From: an uncultured Actinomycetota bacterium
GTDB lineage: Bacteria; Actinomycetota; Actinomycetes; Actinomycetales; CAWJMD01
Direction of reading: 5' to 3'
Length of the DNA: 64,000 nt
Assembly (NCBI GenBank): GCA_963825505.1
Contig: CAWGTL010000001.1
Coordinates: 8,869-72,868, forward strand
In this document: in pieces, positions 3,785-51,979 of the stretch
Position numbering within the stretch: position 1 is the stretch's first letter
Layout: every line of letters begins with the position of its first letter
Program-made: the position numbers and the translations under genes
The notes under the pieces: model-generated
What the model was told of the DNA's origin: nothing
The model's database searches: none
Seen by the model: the letters and a program-made list of their open reading frames with translations, nothing else

Positions 3785-3824
3785 CGGCGGGTCCGGTTGG
3801 CCCCTTGGAGCGCACCACGGGAGG

Positions 3825-33120: not shown

Positions 33121-33160
33121 CCGCCCGCCGCCGCCGGCCGATCTCTGGTGGGATGTCGTC

Positions 33161-35092
33161 GTGGACGACCCCCTGGACGCCGCGCTGCCCGGGCTCGACG
33201 GGTTGGCGCCGCACCGGCAGGAGCTCTTCGCGCTGCGCACCCGCCGCTGGTGGCCCGACCTGGTCGACGGCCTGCGGGGGGTCTACGCCGACCCCGAGGC
33301 GGTCGGGCGGCGGCTGCTGGCGCTCGCGGCGCGCGCCTACGCCGCCCGGCCGGACGACCTGCACGTGCTCGACCTGCAGCGCTCGCTCGAGCCGGACTGG
33401 TTCCAGCGTCCTGACGTGGTGGGGTACGCGGCGTACACCGAGCGGTTCTCGCCGGACGGCACCCTGGCGGGGGTCGCGAGCAGGGTGCCGCACCTGCGCA
33501 GCCTCCAGGTGCGGTACCTGCACCTCATGCCGCTGCTGGAGCCGCGCCCGGCGCCGAACGACGGCGGCTACGCGGTGGCCGACTACCGCGCGGTGCGCTC
33601 CGACCTCGGCACCGTCGACGACCTGGTCGCACTGACCGGCAGGCTGCGCGAGTCCGGCATCAGCCTGTGCCTCGACCTCGTCCTCAACCACGTCGCCCGC
33701 GAGCACGAGTGGGCCGTGGCGGCGCGCGACGGCGACGAGCGGTACCGCGCGTACTTCCACGTCTTCGGCGACCGCGAGCTTCCGGACGCGTACGAGCAGA
33801 CCCTCCCGGAGGTGTTCCCCGACTTCGCCCCGGGCAGCTTCACCCACGACGACGACCTGGGCGGCTGGGTCTGGACGACGTTCAACTCCTGGCAGTGGGA
33901 CCTCGACTGGTCGAACCCCGACGTGCTCGCCGAGATGGCCGACGTCGTGCTGTTCCTCGCCAACCTCGGGGTCGAGGTGCTGCGGCTCGACGCGATCGCG
34001 TTCATCTGGAAGCGCTTGGGCACCAACAGCCAGAACCAGCCGGAGGTGCACGGGATCACCCAGGCGCTCAAGGCCGTCACCCGGATCGCCACCCCCGCCC
34101 TGCTGCTCAAGGCGGAGGCGATCGTCAGCCCGGGCGACCTGGTGCACTACCTCGGCCAGGGCCGCCACGCCGGCCGCGTGAGCGACCTGGCGTACCACAA
34201 CAGCCTCATGGTCCAGAGCTGGTCGATGCTGGCCGCGCGCGACGCCGGCCTGGCGGCCGAGGCGCTCGGCGCGGTGCCACCGGTACCGAGCACCACGGCG
34301 TGGATCACCTACGTGCGCTGCCACGACGACATCGGCTGGGCGATCGACGACGCCGACGCCGCGGCGGTGGGTGTGAACGGCTTCGACCACCGCTCGTTCC
34401 TGTCCGACTTCTACTCGGGCACGCACGAGGGGTCCTTCGCCGACGGGCTGGTGTTCCAGGCCAACCCGCAGACCGGGGACCGCCGGATCAGCGGGACGAC
34501 CGCCAGCCTCGCCGGTCTGGGGCGTGCGCTGCTGCACGACGACGGCCCCGCCACCGACGACGCGGTCGCCCGCATCCTGCTGTCCCACGCCCTGGTGATG
34601 GGCTGGGGCGGCGTCCCGGTGCTGTGGTCCGGCGACGAGGTGGCCGCCCTCAACGACGAGGGCTGGCGCGACCAGCCCGGCCACGACGAGGACAACCGGT
34701 GGGCGCACCGACCCCGGCTCGACGACGCCGCACTCGCCGTCGCCGCCGCCGACCCGACCTCGCCGCAGGGACGGGTGCTGGCGGGCCTGCGCCGGCTCGC
34801 GGGCGTCCGCGCCGTCCTGCCGCACGTGCACGCGGCGGTGGCGTCCGAAGCCGTGCCCACACCGGACCGCGGCGTCCTCGGCGTCCTGCGCCGCCACCCG
34901 CTCGGACTGATGATCGGGCTCTACAACGTCACCGAGACCTGGGGCGGCGTCCCGGACTGGTGGCTCTCGGAGCAGGGCCTGGAGATCGACGACCTGCACG
35001 ACCACCTCGCCGGCGGGCCGCCGGAACGCGACGACCACGCCGTGCTGCTGCCGCCCTACCGGGCGGTCTGGCTCACTGCACGGCCGACGTGA
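33161..35092 (+). CDS. amylosucrase / sucrose hydrolase (GH13_4)
   Basis: DGGYAV, EVFPDFAPG, RLDAIAFIWK, KAEAIV, YVRCHDDIGW, RISGT.ASL.G, DNRWAHRP. Confidence 0.88.
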   Translation: MDDPLDAALPGLDGLAPHRQELFALRTRRWWPDLVDGLRGVYADPEAVGRRLLALAARAYAARPDDLHVLDLQRSLEPDWFQRPDVVGYAAYTERFSPDGTLAGVASRVPHLRSLQVRYLHLMPLLEPRPAPNDGGYAVADYRAVRSDLGTVDDLVALTGRLRESGISLCLDLVLNHVAREHEWAVAARDGDERYRAYFHVFGDRELPDAYEQTLPEVFPDFAPGSFTHDDDLGGWVWTTFNSWQWDLDWSNPDVLAEMADVVLFLANLGVEVLRLDAIAFIWKRLGTNSQNQPEVHGITQALKAVTRIATPALLLKAEAIVSPGDLVHYLGQGRHAGRVSDLAYHNSLMVQSWSMLAARDAGLAAEALGAVPPVPSTTAWITYVRCHDDIGWAIDDADAAAVGVNGFDHRSFLSDFYSGTHEGSFADGLVFQANPQTGDRRISGTTASLAGLGRALLHDDGPATDDAVARILLSHALVMGWGGVPVLWSGDEVAALNDEGWRDQPGHDEDNRWAHRPRLDDAALAVAAADPTSPQGRVLAGLRRLAGVRAVLPHVHAAVASEAVPTPDRGVLGVLRRHPLGLMIGLYNVTETWGGVPDWWLSEQGLEIDDLHDHLAGGPPERDDHAVLLPPYRAVWLTARPT

Positions 35093-36518
35093 GCCGCATG
35101 ACGTTGTCGACGTAGCGCGACCAGAGCGGACGTCCGCGCCACTGCTCGGCGGTGAGCTCGGAGGACACCGACCGGTAGGCGTCCTCGACGTCGCGCACGC
35201 GGCGTACGACGTCGCCGCCCGTGCACAGCAGCGACACCTCGAAGTTGAGCGTGAACGAGCGCACGTCGAGGTTGGACGAGCCGACCACCGCCACCGTGTC
35301 GTCGACGGACAGGAGCTTGGCGTGCAGCACGGCGGGCGACGGGTAGCGGTAGATCCGCACGCCCGCCTCGAGCAGCGCGTCGTAGTAGGAGTTCTGCGCG
35401 CGCTGCACGACGAGCTGGTCGCCACGCTCGCTGACGAACAGCTCGACCGCCACGCCGCGCTGCGCGGCGGTCGTGATCGCGTAGAGCAGGGACTCGTCCG
35501 GGACGAAGTAGGGGCTGGTGATCGACAACCGCTGCCGCGCGCCGTAGATCAACGTGTTGAAGAGCCGGAGGTTGTTCTCGTGGGGGAACCCCGGGCCGCT
35601 CGGCACGACCTGGCAGATCAGGTCGCCCGGGTCGTCCTGGCCGGTGGGCTGCGCCGCCTCCCGCGCGGCGAACTGGTGGTCGAGCCGCTCGTGGGTCTCG
35701 ACGAACCAGTCGGTGGCGAACACCGCGTTCAGCGACGGCACCACCGGGCCGCGCACCCGCACCATCAGCTCGGTCCACCGGCGGTCGCCGCGGCGGTGGT
35801 ACCCGGCGTCGATCAGGTTCTGCGAGCCGGTGAACGCCAGGTCGCCGTCCACGACCAGGATCTTGCGGTGGTTGCGCAGGTCGGGCCGGCGCCAGCGTCC
35901 GCGCAGGGGGTGGATCGGCAGCATCTCGTGCCACTCGGCGCCGGTGGCGTCCAGCCGGCGACGCACGTCCCGGTAGCCGCCGACCCGACGGGTGCCGATG
36001 TGGTCGAACAGCAGCCGCACCGTCACACCGCGCGCGGTCGCGCGGGTGACCGCCGCCCAGAACGGCTCGGTCGTCGAGTCGAACGCGAGGATGTAGAACT
36101 CCACGTTGACGTGCTCGCGGGCCCCGTCGACCGCCTCGGACATCTGCCGGATCGCGTCGTCGTACCCGGTGACGAGCCGCACCTCGTTGCCCGCCACCGC
36201 GGGCAGCGACCCCAGGGCGCGGGCCAGCGAGAGCGCCGGCCGCAACCACGCCCGCACCTCACCCTCCGGAACGGCGTCGGGCAGGTCGCGCGAGCGCTCT
36301 CGGATCACCAGGTCGACCTCGGCCTGCTCGCGGCGCCGCCGGCTGTCGACGAAGGGGCTGCCGATCAGCAGGAACGCCACGATCCCCACGAACGGGAGGA
36401 AGAAGATCAGCAGCAGCCAGCCCCACGCCGACGACGGCCGGCGTCGCTCGGGCACCAGGCCGAGCGCGACCACCTTCACCAGGAAGTCGAGGACGAGCAG
36501 GACCGTGCCGGTCCACAC
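35073..36518 (-). CDS. cls: cardiolipin synthase
   Basis: Two N-terminal TMs, RNHRKILVVD and LHAKLLSVD HKD motifs. Confidence 0.93.
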   Translation of the reverse strand: MWTGTVLLVLDFLVKVVALGLVPERRRPSSAWGWLLLIFFLPFVGIVAFLLIGSPFVDSRRRREQAEVDLVIRERSRDLPDAVPEGEVRAWLRPALSLARALGSLPAVAGNEVRLVTGYDDAIRQMSEAVDGAREHVNVEFYILAFDSTTEPFWAAVTRATARGVTVRLLFDHIGTRRVGGYRDVRRRLDATGAEWHEMLPIHPLRGRWRRPDLRNHRKILVVDGDLAFTGSQNLIDAGYHRRGDRRWTELMVRVRGPVVPSLNAVFATDWFVETHERLDHQFAAREAAQPTGQDDPGDLICQVVPSGPGFPHENNLRLFNTLIYGARQRLSITSPYFVPDESLLYAITTAAQRGVAVELFVSERGDQLVVQRAQNSYYDALLEAGVRIYRYPSPAVLHAKLLSVDDTVAVVGSSNLDVRSFTLNFEVSLLCTGGDVVRRVRDVEDAYRSVSSELTAEQWRGRPLWSRYVDNVMRLTSAVQ

Positions 36519-36542
36519 CGGCCAGCCCGACGCCTCCGTGGC

Positions 36543-37607
36543 TCAGCCCTCGTCGGTGCCGGTGCGGCTGCGCTCGTCGCGCATCCACACGGTGCGCTGC
36601 GGGAACGGGATCTCGACGCCCTCGGCGTCGAACACGGCCTTGATCCGCCGGCGCAGCTCGCGGGCCACCCGCCACTGCTCGAGCGGGACGGTCTTCACCA
36701 CGAGCCGGACCACGACCGAGTCGGCCGACAGCGCCTCGACACCCCAGACCTCGGGCTCCTCCATCACCAGCGGGGCCCACTCCGGGTCGGCGTGCAGGTC
36801 GTGGCCGACCTGCGCGAGCAGTCCCTGCACCCGGGTGACGTCCTCGCCGTACCCGACGCCGATGTCGAGCACCGCGCGCGCCCAGCCCTGGGACTGGTTG
36901 CCGACGCGCTGGATCTGCCCGTTCGGCACGTACCAGACCGTGCCGTCGACCGAGCGCAGGCGCGTGACCCGAAGACCGACCGCCTCGATCGTCCCGACCG
37001 CCTCACCGAGGTCGACGACGTCACCGACGCCGTACTGGTCCTCGACGATCATGAACAGGCCGGAGAGGAAGTCCTTGACGAGCGACTGGGCACCGAAACC
37101 CAGTGCGACACCGAGGATCCCGGCGCTCGCGAGCAGCGGCCCGATGTTCAGCCCGAGCTCGGCGAGGATCATCAGCACGACCACCGTGGCGATCACGCCC
37201 GTGGCGACGCTGCGCAGCACCGTGCCCATCGTGCGGGCCCGCTGCACGCGCCGCTCGGACGCCAGCGGGCTGTGCTGCTCCAGCACGTTCTGGTAGCTCC
37301 ACCACCGGCGGCCGCGGCCGTCGTGCGCGGGCCGGTCTGCCGCGATCCGGTCGACCACCCGCGCGATCACCTTCTGCACGAGCATCCGGACCACGAAGCC
37401 GATCGCCAGGATCAGCAGGATCCGCAGCGGCGTGCCGACCAGCAGCTCGGCCCACTCGCCGAGGCGGCGCTCGCCGGTGACGTCGGTGACGAGACGGCAG
37501 ATCCGGGCACCCTCGTCGCAGGCGTTCACGGCGGTGTCGAGCACGTCCTGCGGCAGGACCGACCCGCTCGGCGAGGGGGACGGGGTGCTGGCGAGCAGCA
37601 ACCTCAA
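36543..37607 (-). CDS. MscS-family mechanosensitive channel
   Basis: ALGFGAQSLVKDFLSG, EDQYGVGD, YVPNGQI, IPFPQ; TTG overlaps the upstream stop, with GGAGG RBS. Confidence 0.92.
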   Translation of the reverse strand: MRLLLASTPSPSPSGSVLPQDVLDTAVNACDEGARICRLVTDVTGERRLGEWAELLVGTPLRILLILAIGFVVRMLVQKVIARVVDRIAADRPAHDGRGRRWWSYQNVLEQHSPLASERRVQRARTMGTVLRSVATGVIATVVVLMILAELGLNIGPLLASAGILGVALGFGAQSLVKDFLSGLFMIVEDQYGVGDVVDLGEAVGTIEAVGLRVTRLRSVDGTVWYVPNGQIQRVGNQSQGWARAVLDIGVGYGEDVTRVQGLLAQVGHDLHADPEWAPLVMEEPEVWGVEALSADSVVVRLVVKTVPLEQWRVARELRRRIKAVFDAEGVEIPFPQRTVWMRDERSRTGTDEG

Positions 37608-39790
37608 GAGGTGACCTCCAGGTGGGTGTGACGGGCCATGAAGGCCAGGGTGTCGGCCGACAGCTCGACCGACCGCGACAGGGCGCGCGCACCGTGGCCG
37701 ACGTCGGACTCGCGGCGCAGCAGCACCGGACTCCTCGACGGGTCGGCCGAGGTGGCGTGCTGCAGCGCGGCGCAGAGCTTGCGCGCGTGCAGCGGGTCGA
37801 CCCGGGAGTCGCTGTCGAAGACGGTGAACAGCGTCGCGGGGTAGACGGTCTGCTCGGTGACGCGGTGGTAGGGCGAGTACGACAGGAGCCACGCGAGCTG
37901 TTCCGCGTCGGTCGCGTCCCCGTACTCGCCGGTCCACGACACCCCGAGCCCGTGCAGCTGGTACCGCACCATGTCGAGCAGCGGGGCGGAGCAGACGACC
38001 GCCGCGTACAGGTCGGGCCGCTGGGTCAGGGCCGCACCGACGAGCAGGCCGCCGTTGGAGCCGCCGGAGACCCCCAGCCGGTCGGAGGTCGTCCAGCCGT
38101 CGGCGACCAGACGCTCTGCGGCGGCGTGGAAGTCGTCGAACACGTTCTGCTTGTGGCCGAGCATCCCCGCCCGGTGCCACTCCTCGCCCTCCTCGCCACC
38201 GCCGCGCAGACCCGCGATGGCGTAGACGCCGCCGGCCTCGACCCACGCGAGCAGGCCGGCCGAGTAGCCCGGCGTCATCGAGATGCCGAAGCCGCCGTAG
38301 CCGTAGAGCACGGCGGACGACGGCGCGAGGGGTCGACCCTCGGCGTCGAGCGCGTCGGCGCGGGCGGAGACGAACATCCGCACGACGGTGCCGTCGGCGC
38401 TGGCGTAGTCGATCTGCTGGGTGCGTACGTCTGGCACCTCGACGACCCCGGGCGGGGACGCGAACAGCGAGACCTCACCCGTCGGACCGTCGTACCGGTA
38501 CACGTGCGGGACCGACGTGTGGTCGGTGTAGCTGAACCACGCCTCGTGGCCGCCCTCCGGCCGCGAGAGCAGGCCGCCGACGCTGCCGAGCCCCGGCAGC
38601 TGCACGGCGGACCGCTCGGCGCCGTCCCCGAGGTCGTGCACCGTGACGCGGGAGACCGCGTGCTGGGTCCACGAGACGAGCAGCCGGTCGTCGCCGCCGA
38701 GCGCCTCGCCGTCGAGGACGCAGTAGTCCTCGAGGACGGCGTCGTCGCGCTGCGGCACCAGGTCGGTCCAGTGCTCGGGGGTGGGGGTCGCCGGATCGGC
38801 GACGCACAGCCGTCCGCGCGGCGCGTCGAGGTCGGTGCCCACGTACAGGCGCCCGTCGCGTCCGACGTGCGCCCCGGTGCGGGCGTCGCGACCCACCACG
38901 ACGTCGACCAGCACCGGCGCCGAGGGCTCGGTGAGCGACAGGTCTGCGAGCCAGACGTCGTTGCGGGGGTCGGTGCCCTCGGCGGCGGACACCACGAGCC
39001 AGCGGCCGTCCCACGACACCGAGGCGCCGTAGTAGGAGGTGATCGCGCGGCCGGCGCCGAACACCTCGACGTCCTCGGCCGGGTCGGTGCCGAGCCGGTG
39101 GAACCAGACCCGGCGGTGGTACTGCGCCTCGTCGGCCGGGACGAGCTCGGAGGCCAGCCGGCGGACGTAGTAGTAGGCCTCGCCGCCGACGAGCCAGGCG
39201 ACGGGGGAGTACCGGGCACGGTCGATCGGGCCGTCGACCACCTCGCCGGTCGCGACGTCGACCACCCGCAGCACCGACTCCTCGTTGCCGCCTTCGCTCA
39301 GCTGGTAGGCCAGCAGGTGACCCTCCTTGGACGGCTGCCAGGTGTCGAGCGTGGTGGTTCCGCTCGGGTCGACCGCCATCGGGTCGATCAGCACCCGCTC
39401 GACCGGCGAGCCGTCGGGGCCGGGCTCGGCGACGAGCAGCACGGCGTGCTCCTGCTCGGCGGTGCGTCGGGTGAAGAACATCCGCTCTCCGCGCCACACC
39501 GGCGGCCCGACCGACCCGGCGCCGAGCAGCTCGGCCACGCGCGCCGCGAAGTGGTCGCGCGTCGTCCAGCCCGCCCGGTGCTGCGCGAGCAGGTCGTCCT
39601 GCGCCGCCGACCACTGCGCCGTCCGCGGGTCGGCGGGGTCCTCGAGCCAGCGGTAGGGGTCGCGCACGGGGGTGCCGGGGCTCGTGGGGAGCTCCTCGAC
39701 CAGGTCGAGGCGCTCGGCGCGGGGGTACGGCTCGTCCCTCGCCGTGACCGGGTCCGGTGTCTTCTGGTTCGCTCGCTGCGCGTCGCTCAC
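37604..39790 (-). CDS. prolyl oligopeptidase (S9A)
   Basis: DPYRWLED, YGYGGF, GGSNGGLL, DSRVDP, VGHG catalytic triad. Confidence 0.95.
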   Translation of the reverse strand: MSDAQRANQKTPDPVTARDEPYPRAERLDLVEELPTSPGTPVRDPYRWLEDPADPRTAQWSAAQDDLLAQHRAGWTTRDHFAARVAELLGAGSVGPPVWRGERMFFTRRTAEQEHAVLLVAEPGPDGSPVERVLIDPMAVDPSGTTTLDTWQPSKEGHLLAYQLSEGGNEESVLRVVDVATGEVVDGPIDRARYSPVAWLVGGEAYYYVRRLASELVPADEAQYHRRVWFHRLGTDPAEDVEVFGAGRAITSYYGASVSWDGRWLVVSAAEGTDPRNDVWLADLSLTEPSAPVLVDVVVGRDARTGAHVGRDGRLYVGTDLDAPRGRLCVADPATPTPEHWTDLVPQRDDAVLEDYCVLDGEALGGDDRLLVSWTQHAVSRVTVHDLGDGAERSAVQLPGLGSVGGLLSRPEGGHEAWFSYTDHTSVPHVYRYDGPTGEVSLFASPPGVVEVPDVRTQQIDYASADGTVVRMFVSARADALDAEGRPLAPSSAVLYGYGGFGISMTPGYSAGLLAWVEAGGVYAIAGLRGGGEEGEEWHRAGMLGHKQNVFDDFHAAAERLVADGWTTSDRLGVSGGSNGGLLVGAALTQRPDLYAAVVCSAPLLDMVRYQLHGLGVSWTGEYGDATDAEQLAWLLSYSPYHRVTEQTVYPATLFTVFDSDSRVDPLHARKLCAALQHATSADPSRSPVLLRRESDVGHGARALSRSVELSADTLAFMARHTHLEVTS

Positions 39791-39900
39791 GGCACGCCAC
39801 CCTACGTGCGACGGCCCCGCCGGCACGGCCCCCGGTCACCCGTCTGGCAGGATCGGGGCGCCCTGCCCGACCTCCACCCACCACCGGGAGCCACGCGCAC

Positions 39901-42042
39901 GTGAGCGAGAACGACGACGGTCACGCACCGCGGACGCCACGGCTCGACGAGCTCGCGGCCCGCTACGGCGTCGCCACCGAGTACTGGGACTGGCAGGGCC
40001 GCCACGTCCTGGTCAGCGAGGCCACCGTCGTCGCCGTCCTCGACGCGCTCGGGGTCGCCGCCGGGTCGGCCGAGCAGGTCGAGGAGTCGCTGCTCGCCGC
40101 GGTCGAGGCGCCGTGGCGCCGGACCCTGCCGCCGGTCGTGGTGGTGCGCGCCGGCGACGACGTGCACGTGCCGGTCCACGTGCGCGACGGCGAGCCGGTG
40201 CAGCTGCAGGTGCTGCTCGAGGACGGCGGGCTCGCCCGCGGCGAGCAGGTGGACCGCTGGGTCGAGCCCCGAGTGGTCGACGGCGCGAAGGTCGGCGAGG
40301 CCACGTTCTCGCTGCCGTCGGACCTGCCGCTCGGCTGGCACCGGCTGGTGGCCAGCACGCCGTCGCAGGAGAGCGCCTGCTCGCTGGTGGTGACACCGCG
40401 CCGGATGGAGCTGCCCGAGCAGGTCTGGGACCGGCAGCGGTGGGGCTTCATGACCCAGCTGTACTCGGTGCGCTCGTCCCAGTCCTGGGGGCTGGGCGAC
40501 CTCGCCGACCTGTCCGAGCTGCTGGCCTGGAGCGGGCGCGACCTCGGGGCCGACTTCCTGCTGGTCAACCCGTTGCACGCGGCCGAGCCGGTCGGCCGGA
40601 TGGAGCCGTCGCCGTACCTGCCCACCACCAGGCGGTTCGTCAACCCGGTCTACATCCGGGTCGAGGACGTCCGCGAGACCGCGTACCTGCACAGCACCGA
40701 CCGGGCGCTGGTCGAGTGGCAGGCCGAGGACCTGAGGGTGGCCAGCACCTCGGGCGACCTGCTCGACCGCGACGCCACCTGGGCGGCCAAGCGGGAGGCG
40801 CTGCACACCGTGTTCTCCGCCCCGCGCTCGCCTGCGCGCGAGGCGGCGTTCCGCGCGTTCTGCGCCCAGGAGGGCGACGGGCTGGTCGGTTTCGCCACCT
40901 GGTGCGCCTTCGCCGAGCACCTCGGACTGCCGGCGGCGCAGTGGCCCGCCGCGTTGCGCGACCCGTCGTCGGAGGAGGTCGAGCGGTTGAGCCGCCGCCT
41001 GGCCGAGCGGATCACCTTCTACCAGTGGCTCCAGTGGGTCGCCGACGAGCAGCTCGCGGCGGCGCAGCGCACCGCGCACGAGGCCGGGATGGCCTTCGGC
41101 GTCGTGCACGACCTCGCCGTCGGCGTCCACCCCGACGGCGCCGACACCTGGGCACTCGGTCCGGCGCTGGCGCGGGGAGTCAGCGTCGGAGCGCCGCCGG
41201 ACGCGTTCAACCAGGTGGGCCAGGACTGGAGCCAGCCGCCGTGGCGGCCGGACACCCTGGCGGCCAGCGGTTACGCGCCGTTCCGCGACATGCTCCGCAC
41301 CGTGCTCCGGCACGCGGGCGGGCTGCGGGTCGACCACGTGATGGGTCTGTTCCGGCTGTGGTGGATCCCGGACGGCGCAGGCCCGGCCGAGGGCACCTAC
41401 GTGCGGTACGACCACGAGGCGCTGCTCGGCATCCTCTGCCTCGAGGCGCACCGCGCCGGCGCCTTCGTCGTGGGAGAGGACCTCGGCGTCGTCGAGCCCT
41501 GGGTGCGCGAGGTGCTCGCCGACAGAGGCGTTCTCGGCACCTCGATCCTGTGGTTCGAGAAGGACGAGGACGGTGAGCCGCTCGAGCCCGAGCAGTACCG
41601 CGAGCTGTGCCTGGCCACCGTGACGACCCACGACCTGCCGCCGACCGCCGGGTACCTCGCGGGCGAGCACGTCGACCTGCGCTCGCGCCTGGGGCTGCTC
41701 ACCCGGCCGGTGGAGGAGGAGCGCGAGCTCGACGCCGCCGAGCGCGAGCAGGTGATGTCGCTGCTGCGCCGCCGCTCGCTGCTGCCGGAGGACGCCACCG
41801 AGCGCCAGGTCGTGGAGGCGCTGCACCGCCTGCTCACCTGGGCGCCGTCGCGGCTGCTGGGCGTGCAGCTCGCCGACGCGGTGGGTGACCGCCGTCCGCA
41901 GAACCAGCCCGGTACCGACCGGGAGTACCCGAACTGGCGGATGCCGTTGGCCGACGGCGTGGGCCTGCCCGTCCTGCTCGAGGACCTCATCACCCGCCCC
42001 CGTGCGATCTCGCTCGCCCAGGCGGTCGCCCGTCGCGGCTGA
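39901..42042 (+). CDS. malQ: 4-alpha-glucanotransferase (GH77)
   Basis: QLYSVRS, NPLHA, HDLAVGV, RVDHVMGLFRLWWIP, GEDLG, THD, NQPGT..YPNWR. Confidence 0.96.
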   Translation: MSENDDGHAPRTPRLDELAARYGVATEYWDWQGRHVLVSEATVVAVLDALGVAAGSAEQVEESLLAAVEAPWRRTLPPVVVVRAGDDVHVPVHVRDGEPVQLQVLLEDGGLARGEQVDRWVEPRVVDGAKVGEATFSLPSDLPLGWHRLVASTPSQESACSLVVTPRRMELPEQVWDRQRWGFMTQLYSVRSSQSWGLGDLADLSELLAWSGRDLGADFLLVNPLHAAEPVGRMEPSPYLPTTRRFVNPVYIRVEDVRETAYLHSTDRALVEWQAEDLRVASTSGDLLDRDATWAAKREALHTVFSAPRSPAREAAFRAFCAQEGDGLVGFATWCAFAEHLGLPAAQWPAALRDPSSEEVERLSRRLAERITFYQWLQWVADEQLAAAQRTAHEAGMAFGVVHDLAVGVHPDGADTWALGPALARGVSVGAPPDAFNQVGQDWSQPPWRPDTLAASGYAPFRDMLRTVLRHAGGLRVDHVMGLFRLWWIPDGAGPAEGTYVRYDHEALLGILCLEAHRAGAFVVGEDLGVVEPWVREVLADRGVLGTSILWFEKDEDGEPLEPEQYRELCLATVTTHDLPPTAGYLAGEHVDLRSRLGLLTRPVEEERELDAAEREQVMSLLRRRSLLPEDATERQVVEALHRLLTWAPSRLLGVQLADAVGDRRPQNQPGTDREYPNWRMPLADGVGLPVLLEDLITRPRAISLAQAVARRG

Positions 42043-42067
42043 CCTGCCGCACCCAGCCGAGCACGCG

Positions 42068-42100
42068 GAACGGCCCGTGAGCGGGGCTCACGGGCCGTTC
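42068..42100. terminator. bidirectional terminator-like hairpin
   Basis: gaacggcccgtgagc-ggg-gctcacgggccgttc, a perfect 15-bp stem between convergent genes. Confidence 0.7.
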
Positions 42101-42120
42101 GCGCGCACTGGCCGAGCGGG

Positions 42121-42318
42121 TCAGGAGGGGGGCGTTCCTGACCGCCGACGCCGCCGCCAGGCGAGGCGGACGCCGGTGAGCACGAGGTAGGCGGCCACGA
42201 ACCAGACCACCCACGACAGCGGGGGGACGCCGCCGCCGAACACGGTGAAGGTGACGAGGTAGACGGCGAGGCAGACGACGAAACCCGCCACCTCGGCGCC
42301 GATCCGGCTGGGGGACAA
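42121..42318 (-). CDS. 65-aa two-TM membrane protein (putative immunity protein)
   Basis: AAGGAG RBS + TTG 20 nt after the upstream stop; two hydrophobic helices followed by RRRRR. Confidence 0.65.
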   Translation of the reverse strand: MSPSRIGAEVAGFVVCLAVYLVTFTVFGGGVPPLSWVVWFVAAYLVLTGVRLAWRRRRRSGTPPS

Positions 42319-42338
42319 CGGCTCTGCTCCTTCCGTGG

Positions 42339-43172
42339 TCAGCACGGCACGTGGTACGAGTCGTAGGTCATCCAGATGGTGGCGGCCACCGGGTAGAGCG
42401 GCACCCGCATCTTGAAGCACCGGCCGGGGGTGCGGGCCGCGGCCTGGGCGGTGGCCACCATGTCGGCCGCGTAGGGACCGACCATCGCCGAGCACGCGGC
42501 CCTGACCCGCCAGTCGACCTGCAGCGTCCCGCAGATCGCCGTGGCGACGGCACCCACCGGGCCGGCGATCTTGGCGAGCTTGACCGTGTCGGTGCGGTTC
42601 CACTTCATGTACGCGACCGCGATGCCACGGTGGAACCCGAACGAGATCGTCGGGTCGGCCGCGACCGGGAAGACGGCGCCGCCGGTGTCGACGTGCTGGC
42701 GCAGCCGGCCGTCGGGCAGGAGCGTGTACCGCGTCGGCAGGAGCGTGCCCGTCGCGTCGACCGCCCAGGGCGCCTCGACGGCGCCGACGGTGCGCTCGCT
42801 GGCGAGGTCGACGACCCAGAACGCGCCGTCGCCGGCGGCCCGCAGCTCGGTGCCGTCCGGCAGGTCGAGGTCGAAGTCGGCCTGCGACCGTCCGTCGTCG
42901 AGGACCGCCACCAGCGAGTACCCGCCGGTGCCGCGGTCGTGCAGGAGCGTGGGCAGGTCGGCGCCGTCGGTGCCGGTGGCGGGCGCCACGGTGCCGGCAG
43001 CGAGCCGTACCCGGCCCGCGAGCAGGTCGGTGCCGAGGCCGGTGGTGGCGGCGACGGCGCGCTGGGCCGTCGCGGTCGGGCGATCAGGTGGTGCGACGGC
43101 CTGGGCGGCCGAGGTCGGCGCGAGCAGCATCACGGCTGCTGCGGCCGAGGTGAGCACGGTGCGGATGCGCAT
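42339..43172 (-). CDS. secreted protein: signal peptide, pro-domain ending FPVAADP, cationic 4-Cys C-terminal domain
   Basis: GGGGA RBS + ATG; MRIRTVL...AQA signal peptide; APWAVDATG..LPTRY...FPVAADP motif. Confidence 0.8.
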   Translation of the reverse strand: MRIRTVLTSAAAAVMLLAPTSAAQAVAPPDRPTATAQRAVAATTGLGTDLLAGRVRLAAGTVAPATGTDGADLPTLLHDRGTGGYSLVAVLDDGRSQADFDLDLPDGTELRAAGDGAFWVVDLASERTVGAVEAPWAVDATGTLLPTRYTLLPDGRLRQHVDTGGAVFPVAADPTISFGFHRGIAVAYMKWNRTDTVKLAKIAGPVGAVATAICGTLQVDWRVRAACSAMVGPYAADMVATAQAAARTPGRCFKMRVPLYPVAATIWMTYDSYHVPC

Positions 43173-43255
43173 GTCGTTCCCCGAGGTGTCGGACGGTCCG
43201 GCGGTGCCGGCTGCTGCCCGAGCGTCGCAACGACGAGGGGTTCCGCGGCACCTGC

Positions 43256-43813
43256 TCAGGGCGTGACGCGTTCCGCCCCAGGGCGTGACGCGGCCCCACC
43301 GGGGGAGGTCCGGACCAGGAACCGCAGCGTCTGCGGCTCGAGGGACGCCGTCCGGACGCCGTCGTTCGCCTCGATCACCGTGCGCGAGGCGACGTTCGAC
43401 ACGTGGCACGTCACGAGCGCGGGGTCGATGCCGTGCGCCGCCGCGAGCGGCAGCACCGCACGCAGCATCGCGGTGGCGTGACCTCGGCTGCGCTCGGACG
43501 GCCGCACCTCGTAGCCGATGTGGCCGCCCACCACCTCGAGCGCCGGGGTCAGCCTGTGCCGCAACGAGATCCGACCCAGGTACTCGTCACCTTCGCACCA
43601 CCACCAGGTGGTCTGAGGCACCGAGCCGGCCGGTCGACCGGGATCGTCGTCGCGCGCCTCCTGCTCGAGCATCGCGACGAGCGCGTGGAACCCGACGGGA
43701 CGCGCGAGCACGTCCGGGGCGAGCGGGACGGCCTCGCCGGCGCCGGCGTGCTCCCGCACCGCCTGGACGAACGACGCGTGGACGTCGTCGCCAGGAGGCA
43801 CGAGGCGGGGCAC
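43256..43813 (-). CDS. GNAT acetyltransferase
   Basis: GRISLRHRL, GGHIGYEVRPSERSRGHAT, NVASRTVIEAN. Confidence 0.9.
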   Translation of the reverse strand: MPRLVPPGDDVHASFVQAVREHAGAGEAVPLAPDVLARPVGFHALVAMLEQEARDDDPGRPAGSVPQTTWWWCEGDEYLGRISLRHRLTPALEVVGGHIGYEVRPSERSRGHATAMLRAVLPLAAAHGIDPALVTCHVSNVASRTVIEANDGVRTASLEPQTLRFLVRTSPGGAASRPGAERVTP

Positions 43814-43828
43814 GGGTGGAGCCGCCCG

Positions 43829-46381
<2,553 letters not shown>

Positions 46382-46496
46382 TGCTGTCCTCTCGCGCGCC
46401 GGGTGGGCGCTGGTCCGGTTCGGGTCACCCCGTGTCGGGGTCTCGGCATCGCCCCAGGCCCCCCGGGGGGCACGCCGTGGGTCGCACGTTCGTCAG

Positions 46497-46522
46497 GGAA
46501 TAGTGGCACGACGCCCGGGATT
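46497..46522 (+). promoter_or_regulatory. possible SigH/SigR-type promoter GGAAT-N18-ATT
   Basis: One mismatch to GGAAT-N18-GTT, upstream of an Rv2466c-like gene, a known SigH target family. Confidence 0.35.
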
Positions 46523-46629
46523 GGACCCAGCAGGCCACGGCCCCCCGCGGCGGCGCATCCCCGACCGCGATGACGCACGAAGCCCCCGCCGACCGAGCCG
46601 ACCACGACCCCTGACGGAGGACCCCACCC

Positions 46630-47245
46630 GTGACCGAGACCCAGACCCAGACCGTCGACTTCTGGTTCGACCCCGTCTGCCCGTGGGCGTGGATGACGTC
46701 CCGGTGGATGCTCGAGGTCGAGAAGGTCCGCGACGTCCGCGTCTCGTGGCACGTGATGTCCCTGGCCGTCCTCAACGAGGGCCGCGACCTGCCCGAGGAC
46801 TACCGCGACCTCATGGACCAGGGCGTGGTTCCCGGTTCGGGTGGTGCTGGCCGCCCAGGAGCAGCACGGCGACGACGTCGTCGGGAGGCTGTACACCGCG
46901 ATCGGCACCCGCGTGCACCCCGGCGGCGAGAGGGACTACCGCACGGCGGTCGCCGAGGCGCTCGACGAGCTCGGCCTGCCCGCCTCGCTGCTCGACGCCG
47001 GCGACACCGACGCCGACGACGACGCCCTGCGCAAGAGCCACCAGGCCGGCATCGACCAGGTGGGTCAGGACGTCGGCACGCCCGTCATCGCCGTCGAGGG
47101 CACCGCGTTCTTCGGTCCCGTGGTCACCCCCTCGCCGAAGGGCGAGGCCGCCGCGCGGCTGTGGGACGGCGTCGTCGCCGTCGCGTCGACCCCCGGGTTC
47201 TACGAGCTCAAGCGCACCCGCGACGACGGCCCGATCTTCGACTGA
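46630..47245 (+). CDS. DsbA-like mycothiol-dependent reductase (Rv2466c-like); frameshift near 46822
   Basis: [32 protein letters not shown]; two ORFs joined by one extra G. Confidence 0.9.
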
Positions 47246-47334
47246 CTGTGTCTGTCGGGGGGCCGTCGGGGGCGTGCCCGACTGTTCGACTGACCTGTGT
47301 TGTCGGGGGGCCGTCGGGGGCGTGCCCCCGACTG
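47237..47334. repeat. imperfect tandem duplication (48 + 50 bp) containing a hairpin
   Basis: ttcgactga..tgtgt..tgtcggggggccgtcgggggcgtgccc(cc)gactg occurs twice. Confidence 0.85.
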
Positions 47335-47351
47335 TTGGCACACTGACCGCC

Positions 47352-47795
47352 ATGCGCGTCCACCTCGGCTACGACCACGCCGGTTTCGAGCTCGCCCAGG
47401 TGCTCAAGCAGCACCTCGCCGACCAGGGTCACGAGCCCGTCGACCACGGCCCGCAGGAGCTCGATCCGCAGGACGACTACCCGGCGCCCTGCTACGCGGC
47501 CGCCCAGGCCGTGGTGGCCGAGCCCGGCAGCCTGGGCGTGGTGATCGGCGGGTCCGGCAACGGCGAGCAGATCGCGGCGAACAAGGCCCGCGGCGCCCGG
47601 GCGGCGCTCGCCTGGAACCTCGACACCGCGCGACTGGCCCGCCAGCACAACGACGCCAACCTCGTCGGCGTCGGCGCGCGGCAGCACTCCGAGGCCGAGG
47701 CGCTCGCCATCGTCGACGCCTTCCTCGCCGAGCCGTTCTCCGGCGAGGCCCGGCACCAGCGGCGGGTCGACGAGGTCGACGCGCTGGGGCTCTGA
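47352..47795 (+). CDS. rpiB: ribose-5-phosphate isomerase B
   Basis: DHAGFEL, DDYP, GGSGNGEQIAANK, ARQHNDAN, RHQRR. Confidence 0.95.
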   Translation: MRVHLGYDHAGFELAQVLKQHLADQGHEPVDHGPQELDPQDDYPAPCYAAAQAVVAEPGSLGVVIGGSGNGEQIAANKARGARAALAWNLDTARLARQHNDANLVGVGARQHSEAEALAIVDAFLAEPFSGEARHQRRVDEVDALGL

Positions 47796-47819
47796 GCGCG
47801 GAGGGACCGTGCCGAGCGG

Positions 47820-49103
47820 TCAGAACATCGCGCCGTTGAAGGCGGCGACGTGCCAGCCGAACGCGCGCGCCGTCGGGACGACCGCCTCGGCGTCCAGGAC
47901 CTCGACGAGACCGGCGGCCACCAGCTGGGACAGGTTCTGCCCGCCCAGGTACAGCGCGCCGAGGTCGCGGACGTCGAGCCGCAGCGCCGGCTCGGCGTCG
48001 GTGCGCTCGCAGGTGGCGCCGCTGCCGTCGTCGGCGCTGCGCAGGTGCCAGCGCCCGGCGTTGGTCGCCAGCATCGGGTCGGACACCTCGAGCACGACGT
48101 CGACCGGGCCGGCGTAGGCGCGGGCCGTCAGCGCCGCCGGCAGGTCGAGCACGCGCAGCCAGAGGGCGTCGGACAGGGTGACCTTGGCCTTGCGCAGGTC
48201 GACCAGCAGATGCAGCAGCGGGTCGTCGACCGGACGCACGTCGGTCGAGACCTTCGCCATCAGGTCCAGGTCGGCGAGGGTCGACCACAGCACGCGCGCC
48301 GACGCGGCGTCGAGCGCGGCGGCCTGGATGACCCGCACGGTGCCGTCAGGGCCGGTGTCCTCCCAGCCCTCCTTGCGGCGGAACAGCGCGGTGGCGCGGA
48401 CCCGTCCCTCGCCGTCCTCGACGAGCATGACCTTCTTGCGCTCGTGCCCCTGCCGCCACTCCTTCGGGTCGGCGAGCAGCTGCTCGACCCGCGTCGGCAG
48501 ACCGCGCGAGACCGCGCCCGGGTGCTCGGCGCGGAACGCCTCGTACACCGCGTCGACGACGCCCGCGTGCCGGTCGATGTCGGCGTTCTCGATCCGCACC
48601 CTCAGGTCGTCGCCGCCCGCGACGGGTCGCATGGCGGCGGAGCGGGGGATGGTGAAGCGCAGACCGTTGGCGGCCAGCCCGTAGCCGAACCGGCCGTAGA
48701 TCGCCGGCTCGGCGGCCCACAGCACCGACACCGGCTCGGTGCCGCGAGCGGCGATCTCGGCGAAGTGGTGGTCGATCATCGCCCGCAGGACGCCGCGGCG
48801 GCGGTGCTGCGGGTGGACACCGACGTAGGTGAGGCCCGACGCGGGGACCCGGCCGCCCGGCACGGACATCGACAACGAGTAGGCCGAGTAGAGCCCGGCG
48901 TCCTGGCCGTCGACGGTGGCGACCGCCGTGCGGTCCCACTCGAAGCCGCGGTAGTCGTCGTCGACCGGGTCGTCGGTGCTCGACCACACCCACTGGAGGA
49001 GGTCGTCGACGTCGGCCCGCCGGTCGGCGCCGACGAAGCCCACCTCGACGCCCACCTCGACGCCGGGCCGTGCCGACGCACCGCTGCTGCTCTGCTCGTC
49101 CAT
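47820..49103 (-). CDS. Eis-like GNAT acetyltransferase with SCP2 domain
   Basis: VGVHPQHRRRG, LWAAEPAIYGRFGYG, LWLRVLDLPAAL.AR.Y, LGALYLGG. Confidence 0.9.
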   Translation of the reverse strand: MDEQSSSGASARPGVEVGVEVGFVGADRRADVDDLLQWVWSSTDDPVDDDYRGFEWDRTAVATVDGQDAGLYSAYSLSMSVPGGRVPASGLTYVGVHPQHRRRGVLRAMIDHHFAEIAARGTEPVSVLWAAEPAIYGRFGYGLAANGLRFTIPRSAAMRPVAGGDDLRVRIENADIDRHAGVVDAVYEAFRAEHPGAVSRGLPTRVEQLLADPKEWRQGHERKKVMLVEDGEGRVRATALFRRKEGWEDTGPDGTVRVIQAAALDAASARVLWSTLADLDLMAKVSTDVRPVDDPLLHLLVDLRKAKVTLSDALWLRVLDLPAALTARAYAGPVDVVLEVSDPMLATNAGRWHLRSADDGSGATCERTDAEPALRLDVRDLGALYLGGQNLSQLVAAGLVEVLDAEAVVPTARAFGWHVAAFNGAMF

Positions 49104-49262
49104 GCCGCACAGGCTGGCACCGTGGAGCCCCGCGGAGCACGCGAGATTCGCGCCCGCGACCGGCGCAGGCCCCGGCCGGCGTCGACGTCACCCGCCGTCC
49201 ACGACCGGCCCGACGGGCGGACCGCCCGACGCCGGTCGGGGCGGGCCGCTAGATTCGCGCCC

Positions 49263-50387
49263 GTGGAGCAGTCACTGGCGACGCGGGCGCGCCCGCGCGC
49301 CCGCCGCCGTCGGCGGGTGCCGCAGGGCATCACGATGGTCCGCCGCCAGCTGATGACGTCCCAGCCGTTCCAGCTGATCGTGCTCACCGGGCTGATCGTG
49401 CTCACCTGCTTCGCGAACCTGATCAGCCCCTCGGTGGTGCCGCTGTCGGCGCTCACCGTCGTGCTGCTGCTCGGCGGCTTCTACCTGCGCGTGCGCGCGC
49501 TGCTGCTGCTGTACCTGGTGGCCGGGTCCGCGCTGGTGTTCGTCCTGACCACCAGCGACCTGGTCGAGGCACCGATCGACTGGGGCACGATCGGGGTCAT
49601 CCTCGGCACCGCGCTGCTGGTCTTCCTGTTCGCCCGCAGCCGTGAGCGGCTCGGTGTCCAGGGGATGGCGGGCGAGTCGATGCTGGTCGACCTGCGCGAC
49701 CGGCTGCGCCAGCAGGGCCAGGTGCCGCGGCTGCCGCCGCAGTGGTCGGTCGAGACCACGCTGCGCTCGGCGTACGGCGACTCGTTCTCCGGCGACTTCC
49801 TGGTGTCGTCCCGCTCGTCCGACGACTCCCAGCTCGAGATGGCGATGGTCGACGTCTCCGGCAAGGGCCAGGCGGCCGGCACCCGCGCGCTGCTGCTGTC
49901 CGGGGCGTTCGGCGGGCTGCTCGGTGCGATGCCGCCGGAGGACTTCCTGCCGGCCGCCAACGCCTACCTGCTGCGGCAGCGCTGGCACGAGGGCTTCGCC
50001 ACCGCGATGCACCTGTGCCTCGACCTCACCACCGGCCGGTTCCAGATCGCCAGCGCCGGCCACCCGCCCGCCGCGCACTACCACGCCGGGTCCGGCGTCT
50101 GGGAGGTGCTGCGCGGGGTGCACGGCCCCGTGCTCGGCATCGTCGACGGCGTCCGGTTCCCGGCCCACGAGGGCCGGATCGAGCGCGGTGACGCCCTGCT
50201 CTTCTACACCGACGGCCTGGTCGAGACCCCCGGGCGCGACCTCGACCTCGGCATCGACCGGCTGATGGGCGCCGCGCAGGACCTCGTCCGCCGCGGCGGG
50301 TTCAAGGGCGGCGCCGACCGCATCGTCGACGGCACCCACACCGACGAGAGCGACGACCGCGCGCTCGTGCTGGTCTGGCGCCAGTAG
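49263..50387 (+). CDS. membrane PP2C/SpoIIE-type phosphatase
   Basis: N-terminal TMs, FSGDF, VDVSGKG, SAGHPP, YTDGLVE, DDRA. Confidence 0.9.
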   Translation: MEQSLATRARPRARRRRRVPQGITMVRRQLMTSQPFQLIVLTGLIVLTCFANLISPSVVPLSALTVVLLLGGFYLRVRALLLLYLVAGSALVFVLTTSDLVEAPIDWGTIGVILGTALLVFLFARSRERLGVQGMAGESMLVDLRDRLRQQGQVPRLPPQWSVETTLRSAYGDSFSGDFLVSSRSSDDSQLEMAMVDVSGKGQAAGTRALLLSGAFGGLLGAMPPEDFLPAANAYLLRQRWHEGFATAMHLCLDLTTGRFQIASAGHPPAAHYHAGSGVWEVLRGVHGPVLGIVDGVRFPAHEGRIERGDALLFYTDGLVETPGRDLDLGIDRLMGAAQDLVRRGGFKGGADRIVDGTHTDESDDRALVLVWRQ

Positions 50388-50399
50388 GTCCTTCCGGGC

Positions 50400-51905
50400 T
50401 CAGGGGGCGGTGACGCGGGTGCGCCCCGCGAGCCAGGCCTGCTGGTCCTCGAGCCGGCGACGGCGGCTGCCGGCGATCCGCACCCAGGTGCCGCCGTCGG
50501 CGTCGCGGTGGGCCACGACGGTCTCACCGGGGGAGGCGTAGCCGCCGGCGTCGGTGAACCGGGCCGTGGTGGCGTCGACCACCTCGAGGGTGGCGATGCC
50601 CGCGGTGGGGTCGGCCTGGTCGGGGGCGATCGCCCGCAGCCGTCCGCCGAGGTCGACCAGGTCGGTGACGCCCCACAGGCTCGCCCAGCGGCCCTCGAAC
50701 ACCGACAGCTCGTGCGCGGCCTGCTGCGTGCGCTCGCGGTGCGCGGCGAGGGCGGCGTCGACGATCTTCACCACGCCGGTGGCGAGCTCCTGCGCGGGCC
50801 CGTCGATCGCGTTCGTGAGCACGACGACGGTCAGGCCGTCGGACGGGTCGACCACCGTGCGGGTGATGTGGCCGGGGAAGCCACCACCGTGCCCGACCAG
50901 CGAGCGCTCGCCGACCTGCTGGCGGCCGAACCCGAGGCCGTAGTGCTCGTCGCCGCCCGGGACCGCCCACTGCGCGCGGTGCAGCCGCCGCTTCGAGGCG
51001 TCGGTGAGCAGCGTGCCCTCGCCCAGCACGTGCGCCGCGGCGTAGCGGACCAGGTCGCCCGCGGTGGACCAGAACCCCGTGGCCGAGGCGAGGGCGGCGG
51101 TGTCGACGGTGTCGATCGGCACCCGGTCGCCGAGGACGTGGCCGCTGTAACCCGTGGCGTACTCGCCGAGCCGGGTCGGGTCGAGCTCGGGGCCGGTGCG
51201 GTCCAGGCCGATCGGGGCCAGGACGGCCTCGCGCAGGTGCTCGGCGTACGGGCGGCCCGTCACCGCCTCGATCACCAGGCCGACCAGCCCGTAGCCGATG
51301 TTGGAGTACTTGAACTGCTCGTTCGCCGGCAGGACGTCCGCGGCGTCGTGCGCAGCCGCCACCAGGGCGGCACGGTCGGGGAACGGCCGGTCGAGCGTCC
51401 AGAAGTCGCTGTCGTGGGTGTCGCGGACGACGCCGCCGCCGTGCGCGAGCAGCTCGGCCACCGTCCGGTCGCCGACGGCGGCGTCCCGGACGTCGGGGAC
51501 GTGCTGCGCGACCGTGTCGTCGAGCCGCAGCCGACCCTGCTCCACCAGCTGCATCACCGCGGTGGCGGTGAACGTCTTGGAGTGCGACGCGATGCGGAAC
51601 AGGTGATCGGTGCGCAGCGGCTCGCCCTCGTCGTCCGGGCCGTCGGTGCCGGGCAGCCGGGCCGACCCGTGCGCGGTCTCGACCAGCACCTCGCCCGCCA
51701 CCGCCACCGCGAGCTGGACACCCGGCACCCGCAGCGTCCGGCGGCGCAGCGCCACCCAGGTGTCGGCGTACCGGGCGGCCTGCCGGACGACCTCCACCTC
51801 GGCGGCGTCGAGGCGACCGGCGCGGTCGTCCGCGGTCGGGTCGGCGGTCACCGGCACGGCGTCGGGGCGGCTGCGGTCGGACGGTTCGGGGGTCTGCTCG
51901 GCCAT
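50400..51905 (-). CDS. serine hydrolase, beta-lactamase/class C fold
   Basis: FRIASHSKTF (SxxK), YSN, GHGGGFPG. Confidence 0.9.
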   Translation of the reverse strand: MAEQTPEPSDRSRPDAVPVTADPTADDRAGRLDAAEVEVVRQAARYADTWVALRRRTLRVPGVQLAVAVAGEVLVETAHGSARLPGTDGPDDEGEPLRTDHLFRIASHSKTFTATAVMQLVEQGRLRLDDTVAQHVPDVRDAAVGDRTVAELLAHGGGVVRDTHDSDFWTLDRPFPDRAALVAAAHDAADVLPANEQFKYSNIGYGLVGLVIEAVTGRPYAEHLREAVLAPIGLDRTGPELDPTRLGEYATGYSGHVLGDRVPIDTVDTAALASATGFWSTAGDLVRYAAAHVLGEGTLLTDASKRRLHRAQWAVPGGDEHYGLGFGRQQVGERSLVGHGGGFPGHITRTVVDPSDGLTVVVLTNAIDGPAQELATGVVKIVDAALAAHRERTQQAAHELSVFEGRWASLWGVTDLVDLGGRLRAIAPDQADPTAGIATLEVVDATTARFTDAGGYASPGETVVAHRDADGGTWVRIAGSRRRRLEDQQAWLAGRTRVTAP

Positions 51906-51979
51906 GGTGGCGGACCCTAGCCCGGACGCCCGGCCCGCTCGCGTCGTCCCCGACCCCCGCAGTCCGTTAGGCTGAAAGG

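Follow-up and report, generated by a model that had tools for sequence, protein, structure and literature searches.

A two-gene cassette of a soil actinobacterium that resembles an exported antibacterial toxin paired with a membrane-bound immunity protein

The closest described system to the locus studied here is S8-PTS, a group of polymorphic toxins of Gram-positive bacteria that carry the BetaH domain (Li, Tan and Zhang 2022, PMC9424270; Mwangi et al. 2026, PMC13556192). In the available text of the first paper, BetaH is a seven-stranded sheet around a C-terminal helix that lacks any universally conserved residue and comes with a dibasic cleavage motif and an adjacent S8 peptidase gene (PMC9424270). 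Other lineage-specific constant domains that depend on Sec are MAFB-N/DUF1020, MicroscillaN and APD1/APD2, as given in the accessible part of Zhang et al. 2012 (PMC3482391). Here we analysed a stretch of 64,000 nucleotides from an uncultured Actinomycetota bacterium (GenBank assembly GCA_963825505.1, contig CAWGTL010000001.1, positions 8,869 to 72,868), hereafter the window, in which the gene of a secreted precursor (gene 1, protein P0001) is followed by that of a small membrane protein (gene 2, protein P0002). This cassette is probably a Sec-dependent, bacteriocin-like polymorphic toxin and immunity pair. The family to which it belongs combines a single constant domain with many unrelated tails, which begin directly past an Asp-Pro (D-P) pair, and with cognate downstream genes; in our reading, the constant domain defines a new family of pre-toxin domains that falls within the polymorphic toxin systems already known.

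The family resembles S8-PTS in its Sec signal peptide, acidic constant N-terminal domain (N-domain), polymorphic C-terminal toxin region and downstream gene, here of a putative immunity protein, and also in its Gram-positive hosts, actinobacteria included. Processing of S8-PTS proteins is said, in the text available, to uncage a cationic helix; here an acidic carrier is joined to a cationic tail, and the nuclease-type tails open with a hydrophobic FW[VI]P. Unlike BetaH, from which it is set apart on the basis of the published description, the present family has invariant P, W, A, D, T, Q and D-P residues, the model of gene 1 shows strands up to residue 172 with no helix before the junction, and this junction is Asp-Pro and not dibasic. 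A Pfam scan that covered 10 neighbouring genes (32981-52732) as well as the adjoining acetyltransferase (GNAT) gene found no S8 peptidase, the only peptidase there being an M1 aminopeptidase. The strings VVADP, PVVADP, PWAVDA and PWAKDA had 0 occurrences in the searched part of the supplement of PMC9424270. With MAFB-N, MicroscillaN and APD proteins, as far as the accessible description goes, the family shares a signal peptide, a conserved N-domain and highly polymorphic C-termini within one lineage. It differs from them in that none of those Pfam families matched, in being actinobacterial and ending in an invariant Asp-Pro, and in carrying mostly short Cys-bearing tails with membrane partners instead of enzymes.

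The constant domain has the signature PWAxDAxG...Q...FPVVADP, a motif that recurs in hundreds of proteins, which in public records are named 'hypothetical' or after the domain of their tail. An exhaustive phmmer search with gene 1 against 1.84 billion representatives returned 1489 proteins at E<=1e-3, of which 246 reached E<=1e-10. Word-indexed protein searches with gene 1 alone were shallow (11 and 9 matches), and a single-protein scan for related loci gave one near relative only. Look-alikes in the ESM Atlas were Actinomycetota 'hypothetical protein' clusters, one lower-ranked cluster (score 0.84) being 86% DUF4258. Scans of gene 1 against Pfam and NCBIfam gave no match at E<=1; no relevant family was found by Pfam in 90 gene 1 homologues (three unrelated families matched one member each) or by NCBIfam in 15 varied family members. 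No description of the domain was met in a literature search that had the additional files of Zhang et al. 2012 outside its reach, which is weak evidence that the domain is absent from print.

Among the 90 homologues, which align over the full length, D139, Q159, D173, P174, C214 and C227 were invariant, and P135, W136, A137, G142, T147, Y149, C252 and C277 nearly so. As the tail of the window's protein is conserved across all of these, it represents a widespread conserved domain class and is no one-off. A profile of the N-domain alone (alignment A3, 93 positions from 13 loci, the last residues being ADP) had P, W, A, D, T, Q, A, D and P as invariant residues. In genomes sampled within the phylum, this profile matched 24 of 401 from the class and 13 of 401 from a phylum sample, seven of the latter outside the class. 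With the full-length profile, 12 of 41 relatives gave a match, a single genome holding up to five. Named hits included Streptomyces, Cutibacterium, Corynebacterium, Bifidobacteriaceae, Microbacterium and Rhodococcus, among others. The two halves of these proteins had opposite charges, with a mean of -6.4 for the N-domain (negative in 162/184) and +5.8 for the tail (positive in 164/184). A signal-peptide-like N-terminus was present in 92 of the 116 family members that could be assessed, as called by a simple heuristic in place of a dedicated predictor.

The position of the D-P pair coincided with the end of the similarity between proteins of different tail type. Both D173 and P174 were invariant in 90/90 aligned homologues. 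In a set of 158 proteins collected by their N-domain match, with no motif filter, D-P occupied the last two profile positions in 156, the two exceptions being frameshifted predictions, and in a second set it stood at the profile end in 115/116. When P0001 was compared by BLAST with 32 proteins bearing other tails, the alignment ended 0-2 residues past D-P in 18, within 10 in 23 and farther on in 9. Across all pairs, the median alignment end was +4 residues for different tail clusters (n=11473) versus +75 for the same cluster (n=21207). The residue after the Pro was variable (S, K, R, T, W or F), and the first five residues past D-P held on average 1.35 Trp in the other tail classes versus 0.25 in the window's class.

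Single-linkage BLAST clustering gave 22 clusters among 184 tails, and 29 among 286 after a sample drawn by the N-domain was added. This sample, drawn by the N-domain alone, held 112 tails in 18 clusters. Cluster 0, the window's own class, was the commonest (39/112), followed by 17 Trp/Lys-rich, 13 DUF2599, 10 helical 'WW...C...GxGSC' and 7 nuclease-type tails, with the remainder in small clusters. Known toxin domains occurred among the C-termini: a TNT domain in an 894-residue Rhodococcus plasmid protein (69.9 bits, cut-off 27), DUF4258 in two loci (25.3 bits in L026 and 23 bits in L010, cut-off 25), and an EndoU_bacteria-like tail at 22.6 bits, below its cut-off of 25.3 (L016). The window's own tail contained no known toxin domain according to Pfam and fold searches. 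DUF2599 (PF10783), so far a domain of unknown function, formed the tail of one locus (L050, G225:C1; 62.9 bits), beginning 6 residues past ADP, and was also found in this position of tail in eight public proteins. Because the L050 tail precedes a 107-residue open reading frame (ORF) with two transmembrane (TM) segments, its sequence context suggests that DUF2599 may be an effector domain. Short tails had even numbers of Cys, near both ends; among the 8 large or enzymatic tails, 5 had none and 3 had two.

Some tails showed features of their own. Those of the nuclease type (L010/L023, L016, L024, L026 and P0012, with DUF4258, EndoU-like or 'EWHHIVEQ' sequences) opened straight past ADP with a hydrophobic stretch, [FWV]W[FIV]P plus some 20 residues, which suffices to merge them into one BLAST cluster and may be a membrane-entry helix. 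An HNH/WHH nuclease was considered for the 'EWHHIVEQ' tails (L024 and P0012); no Pfam match supports it and it remains a guess. In L009 (G016:C57) the tail was a 68-residue Cys-rich peptide consisting mostly of Ser-Tyr repeats (SYSYSYSY...), and no obvious partner ORF was found within 300 nucleotides.

The gene next to the toxin changed with the tail. All loci were read except L053 and those of giant proteins, and the TM calls come from a simple hydropathy window in place of a dedicated predictor; since the loci are related to one another, the counts describe a pattern and are not independent tests. A small TM ORF came next in 17/18 distinct loci of the window's tail class (the exception being L031) and in 12/17 loci with other short Cys-bearing tails (exceptions L027, L014, L034, L052 and L009), thus in 29/35 overall. 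By comparison, it came next in 0/8 loci with large or enzymatic tails, all 8 of which had a soluble ORF of 72-302 residues that started no more than 24 nucleotides past the toxin stop codon or overlapped it. Both DUF4258 tails were followed by DUF2283 (49 and 29.1 bits), and the partner in L024 was DUF1963-like (22.3 bits, cut-off 23). The association of genes 1 and 2 is hence no matter of chance, given the small TM ORF in 17 of 18 loci of the same class and the recurrence of the motif in hundreds of proteins. The partners in the window's class had a basic start, a first TM segment, a loop usually with Trp, a second TM segment and a basic tail, with no invariant residue.

Taken as a polymorphic toxin system in the sense of Zhang et al. 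2012, the family thus combines a conserved N-terminal region with unrelated C-termini, toxin domains among the latter, and an adjacent downstream gene that changes with the tail, the immunity function of which is a prediction. A previous sequence-only reading of this locus had anticipated much of this: it took PWAxDAxG...PVxADP as a carrier or pro-domain with differing C-termini, asked whether an N-domain profile would show a break of similarity at ADP and whether the tail type co-varies with the downstream ORF, and proposed a polymorphic-toxin-like family, and each of these points was borne out by the clusters, alignment ends, partner counts and TNT, DUF4258 and EndoU-like tails given above. 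The interpretation is thus partly supported, autoproteolysis at Asp-Pro, membrane activity and toxicity of gene 1 and protection by gene 2 being predictions. That reading also held that conservation over the full length would speak against it. Such conservation does exist within the commonest subfamily, represented by the 90 homologues, while a breakpoint at ADP appears against the other tail types.

Partner genes in several loci deserve description. L032 (G046:C218) contained, on the minus strand, a toxin gene, the gene of a 61-residue TM partner, a 17-residue remnant of a tail end (...IRFTCAGTLAGWGRYYC) and a second, similar TM partner gene, with ABC transporter genes directly upstream. The arrangement is like a duplication resembling an orphan cassette; this one case of an orphan tail/immunity cassette was seen, and none in the window, without a systematic search having been made. 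In L014/L058 and L034 a hydrophobic tail of 48 residues with two Cys was followed by an ORF of about 100 residues, soluble and helical-looking, that was conserved in both genomes.

Gene 1 lies on the minus strand (42339..43172 with its stop codon; ATG at 43172, TGA at 42341-42339) and encodes 277 residues. Its N-terminus, MRIRTVLTSAAAAVMLLAPTSAAQA followed by V, is signal-peptide-like on reading of the sequence (residues 1-26, 43095..43172, minus strand: MRIR, a hydrophobic core, then AQA before V). Residues 27-174, whose net charge is -9, are rich in beta structure according to the AlphaFold2 model; within them, alignment A3 delimits the conserved core of the constant pre-toxin domain, residues 80-174, which ends in FPVAADP (42651..42935, minus strand). 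The codons of Asp173 and Pro174 (42651..42656, minus strand) form the border between constant domain and variable tail, as defined by invariance and by the break of similarity. The predicted C-terminal effector domain, residues 175-277 (103 residues; 42342..42650, minus strand), has a net charge of +7 and four conserved Cys at 214, 227, 252 and 277, of which C277 ends the protein.

The full-length AlphaFold2 model (mean predicted local distance difference test, pLDDT, 88.4; predicted template modelling score, pTM, 0.69) runs from a beta-sandwich, up to residue 172, through the D-P pair to a beta-hairpin, two long helices and a strand-helix-strand unit. Modelled alone, the tail reached a pLDDT of 90.1 and a pTM of 0.77, so that in the prediction it folds on its own. 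Probable disulfides are C214-C227 across the helical hairpin and C252-C277 across the terminal strands. The best structural match of the constant domain was the dextranase C-terminal domain (Z 6.8, 99 residues aligned, root-mean-square deviation 3.1). Among solved folds, the whole model had 0 Foldseek matches at E<=0.001 and a best Z of 6.8, while the tail alone reached a best Foldseek E of 0.2 and a best Z of 5.2, with generic helical hairpins. Sequence searches of the PDB with the query and with the N-domain profile gave matches at chance level only. A hydrophobic membrane hairpin was considered as the mechanism of the tail and dropped, the hydropathy count being too low.

Gene 2 (42121..42318, minus strand, stop codon included) starts with TTG at 42318, 20 nucleotides past the stop of gene 1, and is preceded by the Shine-Dalgarno-like GGAAGGAG (42327..42334, minus strand; read 42334-42327), 8 nucleotides upstream of the TTG. 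Its product, a candidate immunity protein according to translation and locus comparison, has 65 residues with two hydrophobic segments and an RRRRR tail. Upstream of gene 1 lie the GNAT gene (43256-43813; Acetyltransf_3, E 5.1e-8) and an aminopeptidase N gene, and downstream, convergent with the cassette, lies malQ (39757-42042; GH77, E 4e-114). A long GC-rich stem-loop between gene 2 and malQ (42046..42122, given without strand) folds at -65 kcal/mol (z -8.1; 0/200 shuffles folded equally well) and, from this predicted folding, is likely a bidirectional terminator. A promoter and consensus terminator scan of the locus called nothing, this stem-loop included; the stem-loop was missed because it has no T run. 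The sequence-only reading had described this two-gene unit between the GNAT gene and the malQ terminator, the 277-residue product with signal peptide, acidic beta-rich part and D-P codons at 42656-42651, and the 65-residue second product with its spacing, ribosome-binding site, two TM helices and poly-Arg tail, all of which agree with the translation, charges, model and folding reported here. Its description of the tail held as to the 103 residues, positive charge and four Cys with one terminal, and failed as to a purely helical fold, since the model is alpha/beta.

What happens at the junction is the point on which interpretations diverge. Cleavage is favoured by the invariance of D and P at the very point where homology stops, by the unconstrained residue that follows them and by the opposite charges of the two halves; we infer on these sequence features that the halves would be separated at Asp-Pro. 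The toxin could instead act intact, the constant domain serving in receptor binding or translocation, as proposed for the receptor-binding domain of colicin N and for BetaH, and the Asp-Pro being a structural cap. The model accommodates this, as D-P lies within a well-ordered strand-turn-strand and the constant domain has the beta-sandwich form common among binding modules, its best match being the dextranase C-terminal domain. BetaH, moreover, is interpreted as receptor-binding in the available text of PMC9424270, and in giant proteins a related domain lies far upstream of other domains, its D-P not adjoining a toxin. A mere border, however, needs no invariance of D and P exactly where homology stops in all tail types; the residue after the Pro is variable, tails of 37-62 residues would be odd as permanent appendages, and the opposite charges suit a masking pro-domain. 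We consider an uncleaved toxin rather unlikely.

The giant proteins just mentioned were found in L012 and L054-L057, from other families or classes of the phylum. They carry a divergent form of the N-domain, aPxAxDAxG...AYPxxVDP, near the start of open frames of 1564-2549 residues. In L012, Disaggr_repeat, DUF6531 and RHS repeats come after it, and in L054-L057 no Pfam match was found over the first 850 or so residues.

A precedent for scission at such a bond is the self-processing module of FrpC, in which a highly specific Asp-Pro bond is the scission point in a 'clip and link' reaction, according to the accessible parts of PMC7078468 and PMC7846742. The present family is similar in having Asp-Pro as the putative scission point of a secreted bacterial protein. 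FrpC-type chemistry fits a variable residue past the Pro because only the Asp side chain, forming an anhydride, and Pro as leaving group are needed. Those papers call the FrpC module an internal domain; its catalytic part reportedly sits downstream of the Asp-Pro bond. By contrast with FrpC, an RTX protein of a Gram-negative bacterium that is processed in a Ca-dependent way, the present family has its conserved domain upstream of the bond and the variable part downstream, and no sequence similarity to the FrpC module was found by Pfam. A constant domain that cleaved itself would be a pre-toxin module of a new kind and would mirror the FrpC module, in which the catalytic part reportedly follows the bond. 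In such a scheme, which we put forward tentatively and hold to be rather unlikely, the upstream beta-sandwich would set the terminal Asp to attack the Asp-Pro bond through an anhydride and so free any cargo, be it a peptide bacteriocin, an RNase, TNT or DUF2599; the anhydride left on the carrier could bind it covalently to a cell-wall amine. Release by an outside agent also has a parallel in actinobacteria. PAMP of Propionibacterium jensenii is a Sec-exported pro-protein of about 200 residues with a cationic C-terminal fragment of 6383 Da that is antimicrobial only after extracellular cleavage (PMC5756557). It is like gene 1 as an actinobacterial pro-protein with a cationic C-terminal part, the likeness being one of description, and unlike it in reportedly being cut by outside proteases at a basic site and in having no immunity gene described in the available part of that review.

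We infer that the window's tail is an envelope-acting antibacterial effector and gene 2 its cognate immunity protein. Pore-forming colicins are secreted toxins with small integral-membrane immunity proteins encoded adjacently. A comparable pair is TspA/TsaI of the type VII secretion system, a membrane-acting toxin with a multi-TM immunity protein according to the accessible text of PMC9484751. Both resemble our cassette in placing the gene of a secreted toxin beside that of a small integral-membrane protein, here a putative immunity protein, and differ from it, as far as described, in secretion route and folds; the window's tail helices are too weakly hydrophobic for a colicin-type hairpin. 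Between the window and its closest relative, L002, where the gene 2 counterpart lies at 3726-3920, 48/65 residues of the gene 2 protein were identical versus 98/103 of the tail and 88/97 of the N-domain, so the putative immunity protein diverges fastest. A complex prediction with alignments of the tail (A4) and of gene 2 (A5) scored 0.00 in both runs and is evidence for neither side.

As a small protein with two TM segments and a highly charged C-terminus, gene 2 has the layout of a holin and might alternatively serve in holin-like release, or else anchor or receive the gene 1 product at the membrane. The Pfam scan of gene 2 gave weak TM-type matches only (best E 0.01), among which Phage_holin_3_6 (E 0.032, 14.7 bits) stayed below the holin threshold of 28.4. 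Such a role is nevertheless very improbable: gene 1 has its own signal peptide and needs no holin, the DUF4258-tail loci hold DUF2283, the usual partner family of DUF4258, at the same position, all 8 enzymatic-tail loci have soluble partners, and the faster divergence of the partner is a common pattern for immunity genes.

On the preferred reading of a toxin and immunity pair, the precursor would be exported via Sec, as the signal peptide suggests. The cationic effector would be carried or masked by the acidic constant domain, for which the family-wide charge pattern argues, and would then be split off at or near the bond between D173 and P174, through aspartic-anhydride self-cleavage or the action of an external protease, a step for which only the invariant D-P and its place in the protein speak. 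The effector would act on the envelope or membrane of related actinobacteria; its disulfides, expected outside the cytoplasm, its positive charge and the location of its partner in the membrane point to such a target. Gene 2, with two TM segments, both ends predicted to be cytoplasmic and a Trp-bearing outer loop, would protect the producer, as its position and the co-variation across loci indicate.

The genomic setting of the cassette invites another interpretation, namely that the family is non-antagonistic, comprising secreted envelope or cell-wall proteins with swapped C-terminal modules, and that the window's member is a housekeeping gene. The neighbours are housekeeping genes (malQ, GNAT and aminopeptidase N), the GC content of the cassette is the same as that of its surroundings, the source genome has a single copy, and no toxin fold can be recognised in the commonest tail class. 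Against this stand the patchy distribution (12/41 relatives, 24/401 of the class), up to 5 matches in some genomes, the fusion of the same domain to TNT, DUF4258 and EndoU-like toxin domains, and the presence of cognate downstream genes. Moreover, another genome of the genus (L059, G002:C136) keeps aminopeptidase N and GNAT but has neither the toxin cassette nor malQ at this site. A family without antagonistic function is very improbable. In L059, the GNAT match carries one TGA, and the neighbourhood beyond differs, with the last part of an ORF resembling a membrane permease and with a regulator-like ORF. In a look-up of sequencing runs, five soil-metagenome DNA runs contained at least a fifth of the words from the stretch.

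Well-supported clades of the N-domain tree contained mixed tail types, and strongly supported branches forced at least two origins for the two largest tail classes. This tree requires 27 changes of tail type, versus a minimum of 21 and a shuffled mean of 37.3. Two public predicted proteins of close relatives, P0007 and P0008, showed wrong-frame read-through after residues ~163 and ~144, respectively, from either assembly errors or real frameshifts; the wrong-frame extension of P0007 crosses the gene 2 region.

Several observations count against a toxin and immunity pair cleaved at its junction. In the full-length model D-P stands between two strands, confidently folded in pLDDT blocks of 98 and 91, and therefore not in a floppy linker. 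The fold searches yielded no mechanism for the gene 1 tail, and its helices are mildly hydrophobic (mean hydropathy ~0.45, 1-2% at TM level), leaving a simple membrane-inserting hairpin unsupported as they fall below TM hydropathy. Several of the Pfam toxin-domain matches lie just below the gathering score. The TM partner is missing in the six exceptional loci listed above, and the partner pattern as a whole comes from simple hydropathy calls on loci that are kin. The N-domain tree is poorly resolved (95 columns, 51/89 forks open), for which reason frequent tail shuffling among N-domains is weakly shown, and no RNA runs were listed in the sequencing-run look-up for the stretch.

If the proposed reading is true, it would define an unnamed and widespread toxin delivery family of Actinomycetota, together with dozens of new classes of short antibacterial effectors, each with a cognate membrane immunity protein. 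It would also place DUF2599 and the commonest four-Cys tail in a functional context. The invariant Asp-Pro junction predicts a fragment beginning at Pro174 and, should self-cleavage be true, the constant domain would be usable as a compact protein-release module.

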